From Escherichia phage JY01, in sequence record OR995200.1: a stretch of 64,000 nt of DNA. The stretch is one strand, 5' to 3'. Both the position numbers and the translations under genes were made by a program. Positions 16,901 through 46,987 of this stretch are shown piece after piece. How positions within the stretch are numbered: position 1 is the first letter of the stretch; each line of letters starts with the position of its first letter. Under the pieces are notes generated by a model. It was not told where the DNA came from. It ran no database searches and worked only from the letters and a program-made list of their open reading frames with translations.

Positions 16901-17211
16901 TATTCTTTAAGTTCGAGTTTTGTTCCACGAGAAATAATTCCTTGGTAAGCCCAATAAGGAGGATTAACAGAATCCTCACCAGAGTTTTCTTCAGGAAAAT
17001 AAACCTGGATAACGAAGCCGGATTCATCAAAGGTGAAATAAGTAGTAGGCAGTTCACCTAACAAATCGGCACGAGCGTTGATTTCTTCGAGGTCTTGTTC
17101 ACGTCCAGCCCAGAAGCTTGGGTTCAGACTACATTCATAGAAATAATAGTCATTACCGAACATATCAAAACCATTCCAACTCTCTACTACATACCGCTCA
17201 AAACTAATCAT
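16900..17211 (-). CDS. Hypothetical protein
   Basis: 103 aa ORF. Confidence 0.45.
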   Translation of the reverse strand: MISFERYVVESWNGFDMFGNDYYFYECSLNPSFWAGREQDLEEINARADLLGELPTTYFTFDESGFVIQVYFPEENSGEDSVNPPYWAYQGIISRGTKLELKE

Positions 17212-17213
17212 AA

Positions 17214-17429
17214 TTAAGCCTTTTTATCAAGAACAGCATTCAGCTTGTTAGTAATTTTATCCAGACGCTCATTGAACTCACTAGAAGATAAGCCTTTTTC
17301 TGGAGAAATTAAGCTAATCACGAAAAATACAACAATAAAAGGAATAAGGAAAATAGCTCCAACTGCCATAAACAGAAAGAATGTTACAGTTGTAAGAAAA
17401 TCAGCTAAACCTTTACGAAATTTATACAT
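17214..17429 (-). CDS. Small membrane protein
   Basis: 71 aa with one long hydrophobic segment. Confidence 0.45.
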   Translation of the reverse strand: MYKFRKGLADFLTTVTFFLFMAVGAIFLIPFIVVFFVISLISPEKGLSSSEFNERLDKITNKLNAVLDKKA

Positions 17430-17549
17430 ATTTTACCCTTAATTGATTAACCAAGCATTGATAAGCACTAAACTATATTGGGAATAAAATTCTGGACCAA
17501 AATGAAAAATCATATCATTTATAGTATCCATAATATAATATAATTCAAT

Positions 17550-18020
17550 TTAATCATGTTTCCACACCCCATCGGTATTTGACCAAAGTCGCTGATTGTC
17601 TGATCCTCGCCACAGCTTTTTGGTCGGAAGATTTTTCTCATACTTCCCATCAATAATAACATCAACATATTTAAGCATTTCTAGTTGTTTAATATCTTCA
17701 AACTTATATCCTGTCCACAACCAAATGCTTTTATTGGGATAAAGATTTTTTACTGTTTGAACGATGCAATGAATAACATCTCGGTTATCAGGATAGAGAG
17801 GGTCACCTCCGGTTATAGTCAATCCTTCTATATAATCATTATTCAAACATTCAATCAATTGTTCTAGTGTTTCACCAGTGAATGGAATACCATTTCTAGC
17901 ATTCCATGTTGATTTATTATAACACCCTTCGCATTTATGCAAACAACCTGTGACGAAAAGAACGACCCTGCATCCAGGGCCATTCACAAAATCACAGGGA
18001 TAAAATCTATCATAATTCAT
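17550..18020 (-). CDS. nrdG: Anaerobic ribonucleotide reductase activating protein (radical SAM)
   Basis: 156 aa; cysteine cluster CLHKCEGC near N-terminus. Confidence 0.85.
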   Translation of the reverse strand: MNYDRFYPCDFVNGPGCRVVLFVTGCLHKCEGCYNKSTWNARNGIPFTGETLEQLIECLNNDYIEGLTITGGDPLYPDNRDVIHCIVQTVKNLYPNKSIWLWTGYKFEDIKQLEMLKYVDVIIDGKYEKNLPTKKLWRGSDNQRLWSNTDGVWKHD

Positions 18021-19834
18021 TGGTGTTTAACCCTATGCATGATTTCTTTATTTTTACCGAGATTAAATCCGCGTTCGTTCGGATTTCCCAAATAACCACA
18101 TGTTCTTCTTATGGTATTCATCTTTTTAGGATCAGTTTCTCCGCAAATAGAACAAACAAATCCGTTTTCAGTAGGAGTCATTTCATGGGTACTTCCACAT
18201 GTAAAACATTTATCTACTGGCATATTAACACCAAAATAATCTAAATGTTGTGCGGCATAATCCCATACAGCCTCAAGACCTTTTAAGTTATTTTTCATAT
18301 CAGGAAGTTCAACATAAGAAATGTGACCACCTGTCGCAATGAAATGATATGGCGCTTCACGAGAAATCTTTTCAAACGGAGTAACATTTTCTTCTACTGA
18401 AACGTGGAAACTGTTAGTGTACCAGCCTTTATCAGTAACATCCTTTACACTTCCATATTTTTCTGTATCAAGTTTACAGAAGCGATAGCAAAGGTTTTCA
18501 GCAGGAGTAGAATACAAGCTAAAAGCAAATCCAGTTCTTTCAGTCCACTGTTTAAGATGAGCATTCATTTTAGTTAAAATTTCTTGCCCAATATCACGAC
18601 CGACAAGAATATTCAATTCGTGAATACCAATGTATCCTAAAGACACTGAACTTCTACCGTTTTTAAATAACTCAATTATGTCGTCATCAGGTTTAAGACG
18701 AACCCCGAATGCACCTTCTTGGTAAAGAATAGGAGCAACAGTCGCTTTAACTCCTTTTAAGGAACTAATTCTACACATCAAAGCTTCAAAACATAAATCC
18801 ATTCGCTCATTGAACAATTCAGTAAATTTCTGTTCATTGAACTGTGTTCCAATATAAGAATCTAACGCAATACGAGGAAGATTCAGTGTTACAACACCAA
18901 GATTATTACGTCCATCAAGAATTTCATTGCCAGTCGAATCTTTCCATACGCTCAAGAAACTACGGCATCCCATCGGGGAAACAGGAACAGATGAACCAGT
19001 GATAGCTTTATTGTTCTTAGCTGAAATAATATCAGGATACATCCTTTTGCTTGCACACTCTAAAGCAAGCTGCTTAATATCATAGTTCGGATCGTCTTTA
19101 TAAAGATTAACACCTTCTTCAACAAACATAACAAGCTTAGGGAAAATAGGAGTTATCCCATCACGACCAAGACCTTTAATACGATTTTTCAAAATTGCTT
19201 TCTGAATCATTCGTTCAGTCCAGTCAGTTCCTGTACCAAATGTAATTGTTACAAAAGGAGTCTGTCCGTTTGAACTAAAGAGAGTATTTACTTCATATTC
19301 ATAAGCTTGGAATGCATCGTATACGTCTTTTTCTGTTTTAGATTGGGCATAATTCAGTGCATCGGCGATTTGCCATTTTTCTGCGTCTTCGATATGTTTT
19401 GCATAGGTGCGTTTAACATAAGGAGAAAGTACTTTATCTACATTAGCAAAAGTCGTTCCGCCATATTGATGGGAAGCAACTTGCGCAGTAATTTGTGCCA
19501 TAATTGCAGTAGCAACACCGATTGATTTAGGAGTTTCAATCTGCGCATTACCAAGCTTAAATCCGTTCTCAAGCATTCCTTTTAAATCTACTAAACAACA
19601 ATTAGTAAATGGAAGAGCAGGGGAATAATCAATATCATGAAAATGAATAATTCCGCTTTCATGCGCTTTCATAATAAAAGACGGGACCATATTTTTGGCA
19701 ATGTGTTTAGACACAATACCAGCCATAAGGTCCCGTTGAGTTGGAAAAACACGAGAATCTTTATTAGCATTCTCGTTTAAAAGGTCTTTATTAGTTTTAT
19801 GAATCAATCCTTCAATTTCTTTTTCAATTGTCAT
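18017..19834 (-). CDS. nrdD: Anaerobic ribonucleoside-triphosphate reductase, uninterrupted
   Basis: 605 aa; C-terminal glycyl-radical region RTCGYLG and Zn cysteines CFTCGS..CSICG. Confidence 0.9.
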   Translation of the reverse strand: MTIEKEIEGLIHKTNKDLLNENANKDSRVFPTQRDLMAGIVSKHIAKNMVPSFIMKAHESGIIHFHDIDYSPALPFTNCCLVDLKGMLENGFKLGNAQIETPKSIGVATAIMAQITAQVASHQYGGTTFANVDKVLSPYVKRTYAKHIEDAEKWQIADALNYAQSKTEKDVYDAFQAYEYEVNTLFSSNGQTPFVTITFGTGTDWTERMIQKAILKNRIKGLGRDGITPIFPKLVMFVEEGVNLYKDDPNYDIKQLALECASKRMYPDIISAKNNKAITGSSVPVSPMGCRSFLSVWKDSTGNEILDGRNNLGVVTLNLPRIALDSYIGTQFNEQKFTELFNERMDLCFEALMCRISSLKGVKATVAPILYQEGAFGVRLKPDDDIIELFKNGRSSVSLGYIGIHELNILVGRDIGQEILTKMNAHLKQWTERTGFAFSLYSTPAENLCYRFCKLDTEKYGSVKDVTDKGWYTNSFHVSVEENVTPFEKISREAPYHFIATGGHISYVELPDMKNNLKGLEAVWDYAAQHLDYFGVNMPVDKCFTCGSTHEMTPTENGFVCSICGETDPKKMNTIRRTCGYLGNPNERGFNLGKNKEIMHRVKHQ

Positions 19835-20304
19835 TTTAAACTCTTTCTAAGCTGCTTCTTAAATGAAGCTATTAATTGTGTTTTAGTGTCAGATTCATTA
19901 TATTCAAATCCTCTTTGAAGCATCTCGGCCATCATTTCCTCTTTTCCTAAACGAGAAAATTCCTTTGATTTATCTCCAACAAAGTTAGGGTGAATATTAT
20001 TTTGGGTGTAATCGGATTTTAAATAAGTAAGTAAATTTTCTAACCATTCAAGATAATCAACACCTTGTCCCTTTAAGCCAGAACGATTAAATTTATGCTT
20101 CATTTGACCTTCTGCGGCATTGCATAGATTACAAAGCAATCCACGTACCTTTCCTGCTTTTGGTCCATTTAATTCATGGTCATGATCAAGATGATTAGCT
20201 TGAACATCAGGATTTAGTTCTCGTTGGCAAATTAAGCATTTACCGTTTTGTGCATTATAAAATTTTTGTTTTTCTTCTTTGTATAATTTGCCAGTCAATA
20301 ACAT
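19831..20304 (-). CDS. 49: Endonuclease VII (Holliday junction resolvase)
   Basis: 157 aa; CLICQ..HLDHDH..CNLCN zinc/HNH-type motif. Confidence 0.9.
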   Translation of the reverse strand: MLLTGKLYKEEKQKFYNAQNGKCLICQRELNPDVQANHLDHDHELNGPKAGKVRGLLCNLCNAAEGQMKHKFNRSGLKGQGVDYLEWLENLLTYLKSDYTQNNIHPNFVGDKSKEFSRLGKEEMMAEMLQRGFEYNESDTKTQLIASFKKQLRKSLK

Positions 20305-20344
20305 AATAAAACCCTTACCTTAAATAGATAAGGGTATTTATTAT

Positions 20345-20520
20345 TTTTAAGTATTGTAAAACATTCGATGCAATCGTTTATACTGTCGAATCATCTTTTT
20401 AGTAGGACGAGAATAGGTTCCTACGCAAGTGGTCATATGAGGGTCCGTAGAATGTCCTTTAATAAAAAGTTTCCAAACCTTACCGCCATTTAACTTTTCA
20501 GTATAAACCAATTCGGTTTT
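20345..20520 (-). CDS. Small ORF sharing its C-terminal 14 residues with the adjacent pin-like gene
   Basis: Manual translation MKTELVYTEK...IRQYKRLHRMFYNT; 3-prime end is a diverged copy of 20558-20606. Confidence 0.3.
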
Positions 20521-20606
20521 CATTAAAATGTCCTGTCAGAAAAAGAATTTTGAGTTTTTTCAAGTATTGTAAAACATTTGATGCAATCGCTTATATTGCC
20601 GAATCT
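20347..20606 (-). repeat. Pair of about 45 bp direct repeats (about 89 percent identical) flanking a small ORF
   Basis: 20347-20395 and 20558-20606 differ at about 5 positions. Confidence 0.6.
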
Positions 20607-21045
20607 TTTGGTCAGAAAAAGAAATTTGAGTTTCAAGCCATTCAATGTACTCTGCGGCAGCTTGCATCAGGTTACCTTCATAGCCATCGTTATTTTCTTG
20701 CGCAGCTAATTTAGCTAATGCGTATGAAATACGTTCACCTTGAAAAGCGGCTTTAGGATTCTGAACATCTTGGCTAGTTCTCTCTACAACTTCTTCAATT
20801 TCGCCATTTTCAACGGATTCAGTATTCCACAAACACCAGTATGTAATTGGCTTATCATAGATGTTAATAATCTTTCCGTCGGAAAGTTCAATTTCAATAA
20901 TTCCAGTATCAGGTTCTATATCATCTTCGCATTCTTTTGCAAGTTCACGAACTTTAAAGACAGTACCTGCACTAAGTTCCGGCCAGTAATTACATAGCCC
21001 TGTATCAACACGATTAATTCTAAACCACTTATCTACTGTAATCAT
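20560..21045 (-). CDS. pin: Pin-like protein (protease inhibitor position)
   Basis: 161 aa from MITVDKW; downstream of gene 49 as in T4. Confidence 0.5.
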   Translation of the reverse strand: MITVDKWFRINRVDTGLCNYWPELSAGTVFKVRELAKECEDDIEPDTGIIEIELSDGKIINIYDKPITYWCLWNTESVENGEIEEVVERTSQDVQNPKAAFQGERISYALAKLAAQENNDGYEGNLMQAAAEYIEWLETQISFSDQKIRQYKRLHQMFYNT

Positions 21046-42422: not shown

Positions 42423-42978
42423 ATTTTTCTAATAATAAATCGCTTTCAAAATTGGGATTTTCTACGAATTTATCAAAAAGATCATCGACAATAGTTAAGA
42501 TATTCTTTTTACTAAGAATACGTTTATTTTCATATTTTGTTTCAGAGTCAACTATAAGAGTAAAGAAATATTTCTTGCCCTGAAATTTTACAGTAGTATC
42601 AATATAGAATAAATTTGACTTTTGTAAATTACGTTTAAACCATGCATCACTTAAACTATAAACGCCAAGATAATCATAATCGTCGTTTAAATAACAGACC
42701 GTCCATTCAGGAGAAACAAAATCAGTAAATTCAACGTCAAAATCGCATGTTAATAAATGAATTGATTCAATACTGTTAATAAGTATTCCAGGACGTATTA
42801 AAGACTTTTTACCTCTAGAAAATCTTCCAGAAAGATTTTCAACAGTTTCATATGAAGAACCCCAATAATAATTACGTCCTTCTGCCATACGTTTAAGAGC
42901 ATTTAATAATTGGTCTGGAACATCAACCTGTCTTTGGAACTCTTCAAACATTGAATTGAAATCACTTTGCATTTTCAT
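42370..42978 (-). CDS. Hypothetical protein with FVKECREY motif
   Basis: 202 aa; C-terminal FVKECREYVK. Confidence 0.45.
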   Translation of the reverse strand: MKMQSDFNSMFEEFQRQVDVPDQLLNALKRMAEGRNYYWGSSYETVENLSGRFSRGKKSLIRPGILINSIESIHLLTCDFDVEFTDFVSPEWTVCYLNDDYDYLGVYSLSDAWFKRNLQKSNLFYIDTTVKFQGKKYFFTLIVDSETKYENKRILSKKNILTIVDDLFDKFVENPNFESDLLLEKFVKECREYVKTITIPSK

Positions 42979-42996
42979 TCCTACTTACTCCAAGTA

Positions 42997-43016
42997 ATAG
43001 GGGCCGAAGCCCCTTA
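42997..43016 (-). terminator. UUCG-tetraloop RNA hairpin
   Basis: RNA-sense AGGGGC-UUCG-GCCCCU after stop of 43020-43613 gene. Confidence 0.45.
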
Positions 43017-43019
43017 TCA

Positions 43020-43613
43020 TTATTTCAGAGAATTAATATATTCCTGAACATCGGCAGAGGTAGTTTCAACCCCAGAAATATTACCATTAAAGGTTTCAAC
43101 TCGAGCAAGAGTATCTTCAATATCAACCTTAGTCAGTGCTGCAATTTCAACTACATCATCAGCAGTACTAATTCCAAGGGCATTCGCGGCGCGAGTTTCA
43201 CGGATATATTCCAATTTAACTGCAAGTTCTTGGCGAGCATCATCTAACTCAACTACTTTCTTGGCGATTTCAATTCGCATTTCAGCATAACCATCAGCTT
43301 TAGTAGTCAACTGCTCAGCTGTTCGACGATATAGTAAACCAAGTTTAGCATGCATTGTTACATCTTGACCTTCCGAAAGGAGCTTGCGAATTTCACGCTC
43401 TTTTGATTCGGCCTGCTTATTCTTTTCGACAATAAGTTCACGAATACGCTTTTCTTCATTAATAGATTTAACAGAAGCAGTTTTTAGATCTTTAATTTTA
43501 TCAAGCAATTTTGCTGCTGCGGCAGTATACTGCTCTTCAACAGATAGATTTTTAGCCATAGCAGAACCAAGTTTAGTGCGAATAAACTCAACAATTTTCT
43601 TCAGTGTGTTCAT
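43020..43613 (-). CDS. Coiled-coil protein, possibly PspA/IM30-like
   Basis: All-helical heptad-rich 197 aa; [15 protein letters not shown] resembles a PspA segment as recalled. Confidence 0.4.
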
Positions 43614-45965: not shown

Positions 45966-46041
45966 TGGTCGAGGCAGTAGGGATCGAACCTACGACCTAG
46001 GACTTAGAAGGTCCTTGCTCTTCCTTCTGAGCTATGCCCCG
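45966..46041 (-). tRNA. tRNA-Arg (anticodon UCU)
   Basis: Manual cloverleaf: acceptor 7 bp, D-stem GCTC/GAGC, anticodon loop CUUCUAA, T-loop, CCA encoded. Confidence 0.8.
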
Positions 46042-46045
46042 TAAT

Positions 46046-46121
46046 TGGGGTGACCGATGGGAGTCGAACCCATGACTACGAGAATCACAATCTCGAGTTC
46101 TACCAACTGAACTACGGCCAC
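46046..46121 (-). tRNA. tRNA-His (anticodon GUG)
   Basis: Manual cloverleaf; anticodon loop UUGUGAU, discriminator C73, CCA encoded. Confidence 0.7.
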
Positions 46122-46235
46122 ATTAATACCTACTCCAACAATCAAGATGTCTTCACACGAAATTAAGAGAAGAGTGATCAGTTCAACCCCTATAATCGCG
46201 TCAAGTAGATATTAATGTGACAGTTGTCACAAATT

Positions 46236-46310
46236 TGGCGGACGTGATAGGATTCGAACCTATAACCAATCGCTTAACAGGCGATCGCTCTGCCATTGAG
46301 CTACACATCC
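46236..46310 (-). tRNA. tRNA-Asn (anticodon GUU)
   Basis: Manual cloverleaf; anticodon loop CUGUUAA, discriminator G73, CCA encoded. Confidence 0.7.
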
Positions 46311-46314
46311 AAAT

Positions 46315-46401
46315 TGGTGGGGAGTGATGGAGTCGAACCACCCGAGTCGCAATGACAATGAATTTACAGTCCACACCGCTACCTCTACGGGATAACTCCC
46401 C
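46315..46401 (-). tRNA. tRNA-Tyr (anticodon GUA), long variable arm
   Basis: 87 nt; anticodon loop CUGUAAA; acceptor GGGGAGU/ACUCCCC. Confidence 0.65.
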
Positions 46402-46414
46402 TTAATTCATAATT

Positions 46415-46489
46415 TGGTGGCCCTGGGTGGAATTGAACCACCATCTGGCGATTATGAGTCGCTTGCTTGAACCTTCCAGCTACAGGGCC
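46415..46489 (-). tRNA. tRNA with CAU anticodon (Ile-lysidine or Met)
   Basis: Manual cloverleaf; anticodon loop CUCAUAA; CCA encoded. Confidence 0.7.
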
Positions 46490-46490
46490 T

Positions 46491-46566
46491 TGGTGCTGAT
46501 TGACGGAATCGAACCGCCGACCTTCTCATTACAAGTGAGTTGCTCTACCTACTGAGCTAAATCAGC
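46491..46566 (-). tRNA. tRNA-Thr (anticodon UGU)
   Basis: Manual cloverleaf; anticodon loop CUUGUAA. Confidence 0.75.
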
Positions 46567-46571
46567 AAAAC

Positions 46572-46661
46572 TGGCGGAGGTGATAGGATTCGAACCTATG
46601 AATCGCCGGAGCGACTGCCGGTTTTCAAGACCGGTGCATTCAACCACTCTGCCACACCTCC
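46572..46661 (-). tRNA. tRNA-Ser (anticodon UGA), long variable arm
   Basis: 90 nt; anticodon stem CCGGU/ACCGG, loop CUUGAAA. Confidence 0.75.
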
Positions 46662-46663
46662 AG

Positions 46664-46737
46664 TCTCCATACAAGGATTTGAACCTTGGACCTCCTGATC
46701 CCAAATCAGGCGCTCTACCAAACTGAGCTACACGGAG
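46664..46737 (-). tRNA. tRNA-Pro (anticodon UGG), CCA not encoded
   Basis: Anticodon stem CCUGA/UCAGG, loop UUUGGGA; T-loop UUCAAAU. Confidence 0.75.
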
Positions 46738-46747
46738 TAAATTAAAT

Positions 46748-46821
<74 letters not shown>

Positions 46822-46826
46822 AAATT

Positions 46827-46913
46827 TGGTGCGAGAAGTGGGACTCGAACCCACAAGGAAATCATTCCGCAGCATTTTAAGTGCTGTGCCTTTACCAATT
46901 TGACCATTCTCGC
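46827..46913 (-). tRNA. tRNA-Leu (anticodon UAA), long variable arm
   Basis: 87 nt; anticodon stem CAGCA/UGCUG, loop CUUAAAA. Confidence 0.8.
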
Positions 46914-46914
46914 G

Positions 46915-46987
46915 CTGGGAATAAAGGACTCGAACCTTTGCATCCTGGAATCAAAATCCAGTGCCTTACCAACTTGGCTAATTCCCA
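46915..46987 (-). tRNA. tRNA-Gln (anticodon UUG), CCA not encoded
   Basis: Anticodon stem CUGGA/UCCAG, loop UUUUGAU; acceptor complement exact. Confidence 0.75.

Follow-up and report, generated by a model that had tools for sequence, protein, structure and literature searches.

An intact, intron-free nrdD gene in Escherichia phage JY01, most likely never invaded and in principle open to the phage T4 intron

The nrdD gene in the window, by which we mean the whole 64,000-nt stretch of Escherichia phage JY01 (sequence record OR995200.1) that was analyzed, is best read as an ordinary intron-free Tequatrovirus gene. In this reading, to which we assign a probability of about 0.9, it encodes a complete enzyme, was most likely never invaded by an intron, and is in principle able to receive one. 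Judged by its sequence matches, the phage is a T4-like Tequatrovirus, ~97% identical to many sequenced relatives. The following genes and motifs were located.

18017..19834, minus strand: nrdD, large subunit of the class III anaerobic ribonucleoside-triphosphate reductase; ATG-initiated open reading frame (ORF) of 605 codons plus stop
18080..18109, minus strand: glycyl-radical motif RRTCGYLGNP, residues 576-585, with radical glycine G580; found by motif search and Pfam Gly_radical
18143..18208, minus strand: C-terminal zinc-ribbon cysteines, CFTC 543-546 and CSIC 561-564; found by motif search
17550..18020, minus strand: nrdG, radical-SAM activase of NrdD; Pfam Fer4_12 (2e-48) and Radical_SAM; its ATG overlaps the nrdD stop (ATGA)
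19831..20304, minus strand: gene 49, endonuclease VII; Pfam Endonuclease_7 and Endonuc-dimeris; its stop overlaps the nrdD ATG (ATGA)

The sequence-only reading had described nrdD as a single 605-codon ORF at 18017-19834, and the ORF list, the Pfam matches and the alignment to the T4 enzyme (PDB 1H78) agree with it. At 34.9% G+C, 605 sense codons in a row would be expected by chance with a probability of ~3e-19. Pfam NRDD (PF13597) matched the product over its complete profile (positions 1-562 of 562; 4e-171; 570.9 bits, with a cut-off of 26.2), and Pfam Gly_radical matched residues 481-586 (1.4e-25). Furthermore, a phmmer comparison with PDB sequences aligned residues 1-605 to residues 1-605 of T4 NrdD (1H78) with 1403 bits. 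All features by which this class of reductase can be read from sequence were found, namely, the NRDD profile, the glycyl domain with RxCGY, the four-cysteine zinc ribbon and the adjoining nrdG.

The T4 protein (nrdD, also called sunY; PDB 1H78/1HK8) likewise has 605 amino acids, shares both the glycyl-radical and the zinc-ribbon motif, and is encoded in the same 49-nrdD-nrdG neighborhood. Indeed, the zinc-ribbon stretch has the same residues in both proteins. Aligned without gaps to the two T4 exons, the window gene differs at 65 of 1818 nt and 4 of 605 amino acids, with 0 indels; this corresponds to 96.4% nucleotide identity to the spliced T4 coding sequence (CDS) and 99.3% amino acid identity (601/605 residues). 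The amino acid differences in the window/T4 comparison are V65F, V338T, R417Q and I484V. From this near-identity to the characterized T4 enzyme, we infer formate-dependent NTP reduction under anaerobiosis as the activity of NrdD. In such a scheme, NrdG would use S-adenosylmethionine to put the glycyl radical on G580 of NrdD, and NrdD would then reduce NTPs to dNTPs in anaerobic infection.

Gene 49 lies upstream and nrdG downstream of nrdD. The ATGA overlaps suggest that 49-nrdD-nrdG is a translationally coupled block, with nrdG probably coupled to nrdD. In T4, mobC is present between nrdD and nrdG (42906..43538), while in the window it is absent from this position. The best matches to the block were Tequatrovirus genomes with 97.4-97.6% identity (PYps35T, a15, SHBML-50-1 and RB32/RB33), and the 24-kb stretch around it is ~97% identical to ECML-363, SfPhi01 and others. 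No record identical to the window was found in a collection of 50,697 phage records, where the best identity was again 97.4-97.6%.

Unlike the window gene, T4 nrdD is interrupted after nt 538 by a 1033-nt group I intron with I-TevII (NC_000866, 44815..45847). That T4 nrdD is split by a group I intron had been stated in the sequence-only reading; it is borne out by the T4 record, in which nrdD is annotated as a two-piece join with I-TevII within, and by an Rfam score of 105.3 bits. The companion claim, that this phage represents the intron-minus state, also held. The 1818-nt alignment to the ligated T4 exons is gap-free, an insertion of ~1 kb after CDS nt 538 is absent, and neither Rfam nor blastn gave an intron signal. 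With no indels in the alignment, an intron remnant could not be accommodated; the comparison located the exon junction and revealed no remnant intron sequence.

The Rfam model Intron_gpI had no match in the whole window, either in gathering mode or in evalue mode at E<=0.01, and no match at E<=10 in 17000-21000 with lax filters. As a positive control, the same model detects the T4 nrdD intron with the score given above. The lax-filter run is the relevant negative, because gathering mode missed a divergent nrdD intron: it overlooked the type-2 intron described below in another phage (L002), which reached 70.6 bits, and thus scores as a group I intron, once the filters were relaxed. The nrdD interval 18017-19834, for which a covariance search had been proposed, was covered by these runs, and no group I intron was detected in it. 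When both known nrdD introns were compared with the window by blastn, only chance-level matches of 14-33 nt were obtained. Moreover, tblastn searches of the whole window with I-TevII, the type-2 endonuclease and MobC yielded nothing at E<=0.01, and a simple regular-expression scan found no GIY-YIG motif in window segments of at least 80 amino acids. In short, the window nrdD has none of the marks of an intron-bearing allele of the T4 sunY type (covariance match, ~1-kb insertion, I-TevII frame).

The position at which the T4 intron would reside was determined by comparison with T4, and two further features were defined.

19296..19297, minus strand: equivalent of the T4 intron insertion site, within codon 180; 19297 is the last exon-1 base and 19296 the first exon-2 base
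19277..19306, minus strand: equivalent of the I-TevII homing site, 30 bp (10 nt of exon 1 and 20 nt of exon 2), by positional equivalence to T4

The BLAST alignment with T4 nrdD breaks near window positions 19296-19299. Among all equivalent placements in a junction scan, only a 538-nt exon 1 placed a U at the exon end and a G at the intron end while keeping nucleotide and amino acid differences to a minimum. A 536-nt exon 1, as derived from the BLAST break, was rejected: it created the spurious changes D179E and D180Y, both of which vanish with the junction 2 nt downstream. The window thus has an uninterrupted exon junction at the insertion position (19297/19296).

How usual such a junction is was assessed in a survey of the 50,697 phage records, in which counts are per record and include RefSeq/GenBank duplicates. 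Matches to the nrdD locus came from 938 records, and in 807 of these at least 80% of the query was covered. Two intron lineages occupy this locus. The T4-type intron is present in 25 records, many of them T4 copies or laboratory derivatives; it also occurs in PST, RB55, RB59, G8, RPN226, fPS-2, U5, EC128 and Manna. The type-2 intron, absent from the window, is inserted at exactly the same nucleotide as that of T4. It differs from the T4 intron in its length of 1045 nt, with ~70% identity in the 5' part and an endonuclease that is 56% identical to I-TevII. Full-length copies were found in 44 records (e.g., pSe_SNUABM_01, HY03 and JK45). A wide spread of the type-2 intron, as 360 matching records might imply, was rejected, since only these 44 are full-length and the sampled partial matches were short. 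Among the latter (~316 partial matches in all), most consisted of a 42-nt group I core shared with the td intron and with introns of unrelated phages; other sampled ones were 120-130-nt stretches with ~81% identity in Campylobacter phages.

Taken together, an nrdD intron of either lineage is present in ~7-9% of the records with the locus (~800-940 records). The 43-mer spanning the window junction, by comparison, had matches in 549 records (at 99% or more in 433), including T2, RB51, AR1 and RB69, the last of another genus. The nrdD genes of T2, RB32/RB33, RB51, PYps35T and most other Tequatrovirus are uninterrupted and share this 43-mer; they have 97% identity to the window over 49-nrdD-nrdG, the same gene order and no mobC, and differ by scattered point differences only. 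Since the late 1980s it has been known that the three T4 introns are patchily distributed among T-even phages. Among ~40 T4-related genomes, intron-encoded homing endonuclease genes (HEGs) were listed only for T4, T6, RB3 and LZ2 (Table 5 of a 2010 review, PMC2993671). We conclude that intron-free nrdD is the usual state in T4 relatives and that T4 is the exception. The uninterrupted gene found here is already known and ordinary, and because intron-minus is the majority state, its significance was overstated in the sequence-only reading.

The intron-minus state had also been described as the substrate for intron homing. In principle, the window site could be an I-TevII homing substrate; however, susceptibility to homing should not be assumed, because the site differs from that of intron-deleted T4. 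The window site reads GCTTATGAAT before and ATGAAGTAAATACTCTCTTT after the junction, while the ligated T4 exons, which we take to be the characterized I-TevII substrate, read GCTTATGAGT and ATGAAGTGAACACGTTATTC. Both sites have the same position in the gene and encode the same peptide, AYEYEVNTLF, and they share 23 of 30 bases. The 7 differences, among ~23 positions across the insertion and cut region, are located at -2, +8, +11, +14, +15, +17 and +20. All are synonymous (GAG>GAA, GTG>GTA, AAC>AAT, ACG>ACT, TTA>CTC with two changes, and TTC>TTT). They form the densest cluster of differences in nrdD, with P ~1.5e-5 for a fixed 24-nt segment at the gene-wide rate; the mean nucleotide difference from the T4 exons across the gene is 3.6%. 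Presumably, I-TevII binds the stretch from -2 to +20 and cuts within exon 2, 13 and 15 nt past the insertion site. Compared to the intron-deleted T4 site, the window substitutions include bases beside the reported cut and the P1-pairing base at -2.

The exact T4-type junction was found in no intron-free record when the phage collection was searched. Closest to it is Salmonella phage SG1, which is intron-free and has the full haplotype of G at -2, +8G, +11C, +14G, +15T, +17A and +20C. Judging from these flanks, the SG1 allele may plausibly have arisen when an intron was lost precisely.

Base -2 deserves separate consideration. An A was present at this position in 21 of 21 intron-free alleles sampled (20 IMG/VR loci and UPWr_E4; down to 41% amino acid identity), as it is in the window. 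In contrast, a G occupies -2 in T4, G8 and the type-2 intron allele, and thus in both intron lineages. This G was nevertheless rejected as a mark exclusive to intron-bearing alleles, since the intron-free ECO07P2, ST0 and SG1 have it as well. In intron-bearing alleles, the G is present because P1 pairing with the guide sequence needs it. According to the folding analysis, the exon sequence UAUGAGU pairs with the intron sequence GCUCAU(G), with U.G at the splice site and -7.1 kcal/mol; once -2 is an A, a different fold is preferred over the P1 helix. The type-2 intron shares with the T4 intron both the guide GCUCAU and the requirement at -2. In this folding model, the A at -2 of the window would break P1 pairing unless it were co-converted.

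Whether genes like that in the window take up the intron can be judged from natural carriers. In EC128, fPS-2, PST, Manna, RPN226 and G8, which have different backgrounds, the introns are at least 99.2% identical to that of T4, while the nrdD exons of these six phages have 34-168 differences from T4. In all six, the T4-identical exon tract is found only around the intron, starting at -28 to -154 and ending at +27 to +33; the shortest one, in RPN226, spans -28..+27. Beyond the tract, the informative sites are largely window-like. Such mosaic exons fit homing into window-like genes with short co-conversion tracts. They are supportive but not decisive, because the same patterns could arise by ordinary homologous recombination in which no endonuclease has cut. 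They nevertheless indicate that window-like alleles probably receive the nrdD intron in nature. In agreement with the mosaic exons, Sandegren and Sjöberg reportedly described, in 2004, recent horizontal intron transfer among T-even-like phages.

An alternative, which we regard as possible but unlikely, is that the window allele is intron-free yet refractory. In that case, I-TevII would cleave it poorly because of the 7 substitutions, an intron that entered without co-conversion would hardly splice because of the A at -2, and the common haplotype would be a barrier holding the nrdD intron at its low frequency. This would be consistent with the dense clustering of the differences between -2 and +20, with a P1 helix weakened by the A, with the occurrence of the T4-type intron in 25 records as against 549 for the window haplotype, and with the lack of any intron-free record that has the exact T4-type site. 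However, the natural intron-bearing phages are window-like just beyond their short T4-identical tracts. Moreover, the GIY-YIG enzymes I-TevI and I-TevII make minor-groove contacts and tolerate many substitutions, and the sunY intron has been reported to move into T2-type recipients; T2 has the 43-mer of the window. The -2 base, for its part, lies so close to the intron, at 2 nt, that co-conversion would include it in nearly every case.

The broader form of this alternative is doubtful. It holds that the majority haplotype as such, with A at -2 and six exon-2 changes, resists I-TevII or is cut poorly by it and is incompatible with P1, and that alleles with T4-type flanks are the only ones cut efficiently. 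If true, it would be of moderate interest to specialists; a resistant majority haplotype would explain why a super-Mendelian element is carried by no more than a few percent of T4-like phages.

The reading as an ordinary intron-free gene includes that the window allele most likely was never invaded by an intron. This is suggested because its junction is the conserved majority haplotype (T2, RB69) and lacks the flank markers of either intron lineage; it stops short of proof because an intron lost by exchange with an intron-free phage would take the flank markers with it. The opposite history, a precise loss of an intron that the window allele formerly carried, whether through such an exchange or via a spliced-RNA intermediate, seems to us quite improbable. 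Such loss probably does occur in this group of phages, as illustrated by SG1, which is intron-free with full T4-type flanks. The window allele, however, is without T4-type flank markers, which the spliced-RNA route would have retained, and its site is the majority haplotype that is also found in a different genus. In addition, its best matches suggest a placement among the intron-free alleles of the T2/RB32 type. Finally, although filter losses do occur, as with the type-2 intron in L002 in gathering mode, the idea of an intron or remnant so divergent that the tools overlooked it has a negligible probability and is effectively refuted by the gap-free alignment, with 0 indels and 601/605 residues shared with the spliced T4 CDS, the match to 1H78 over residues 1-605, and the empty lax-filter Rfam run on 17000-21000 at E<=10.

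With the reading as an ordinary, never-invaded gene, the following course of homing can be envisaged. If an intron-bearing phage were to co-infect, its I-TevII would bind across 19277-19306 and cut on the exon-2 side. In the ensuing double-strand-break repair, the donor would serve as template, and at least the stretch from -2 to about +20 would be copied along with the intron. Homing into the window allele would need I-TevII to tolerate 7 site substitutions, and co-conversion of at least the base at -2 (A to G) would be needed to form the P1 helix for splicing.

In summary, the value of these results is confirmatory: nrdD was correctly identified, it is intact, and the coordinate of the insertion site is fixed. 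For the T4-like phages in general, the survey gives the current frequencies of two intron lineages at one nrdD site.

The intron of T4 nrdD and a second lineage of group I introns, found in 44 phage records, are inserted at the identical nucleotide of the gene. No description of this second lineage was found in the literature searched. Its example in Salmonella phage pSe_SNUABM_01 (stretch L002) is located as follows:

L002 1605-2649, second-lineage nrdD group I intron

The second intron is 1,045 nt long, shares the guide sequence GCUCAU with the T4 intron, and is about 70% identical to the 5' part of the latter, while its endonuclease is 56% identical to I-TevII. In many records, it is annotated as a split gene together with a "homing endonuclease" or a "hypothetical protein." A search of 12.9 kb with Rfam, run in gathering mode and with the default filters, missed the L002 intron (1569-1804). 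The same model gave 70.6 bits for this segment (cut-off, 50) if laxer filters were applied to 1.3 kb. Because of this miss, a gathering-mode scan that reports no group I intron calls for caution.

The exon sequence around the intron was compared between T4 and six other intron-bearing phages (EC128, fPS-2, PST, Manna, RPN226, and G8), with positions counted from the insertion site. The T4-identical tract was confined to a region beginning at approximately -28 to -154 and ending at +27 to +33. At +34, all six phages differed from T4, and at +37, five of the six did; at both positions T4 is identical to the window.

The T4-type flank haplotype is present in full (-2 G, +8 G, +11 C, +14 G, +15 T, +17 A, and +20 C) in an intron-free allele of Salmonella phage SG1 (stretch L025):

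L025 984-2801, intron-free nrdD

Among the natural intron-free alleles found, only that of SG1 has the canonical I-TevII site. Alongside the T4-type flank, its exon 1 carries type-2-like markers at -11 and -8. SG1 nrdD may have arisen through the precise loss of an intron.

In Escherichia phage UPWr_E4 (stretch L003), gene 49 (endonuclease VII) is tandemly duplicated directly upstream of nrdD, and a small ORF separates the two copies:

L003 597-1073, gene 49 copy
L003 1292-1765, gene 49 copy

An additional endonuclease gene lies between gene 49 and nrdD in fPS-2 (so annotated) and in Manna (annotated as a hypothetical protein). Downstream of nrdD, different endonuclease genes are present in EC128, RPN226, fPS-2, and PST.

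Three further features of the window were recorded:

20300-20389, minus strand, weak sub-threshold Rfam matches, short spacer on the upstream side of gene 49
45969-46987, minus strand, cluster of 10 tRNA genes, all well above the Rfam cut-off
18017-18020, nrdD/nrdG overlap (ATGA)

The spacer matches, ohsC_RNA (26.5 bits) and rnk_leader (21.6 bits; each cut-off, 50), probably reflect chance or a small hairpin. The tRNA cluster appears to lack a segB-like gene, since a simple regular-expression scan revealed no GIY-YIG motif in window ORF segments of at least 80 aa. In T4, nrdD is separated from nrdG by the HNH homing-endonuclease gene mobC (stretch L001, 2907-3539), whereas in the window mobC is absent from this junction and the two genes share the ATGA instead. 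No MobC homologue was detected in the whole 64 kb.

The nrdD neighbourhood is a hotspot for homing-endonuclease genes.
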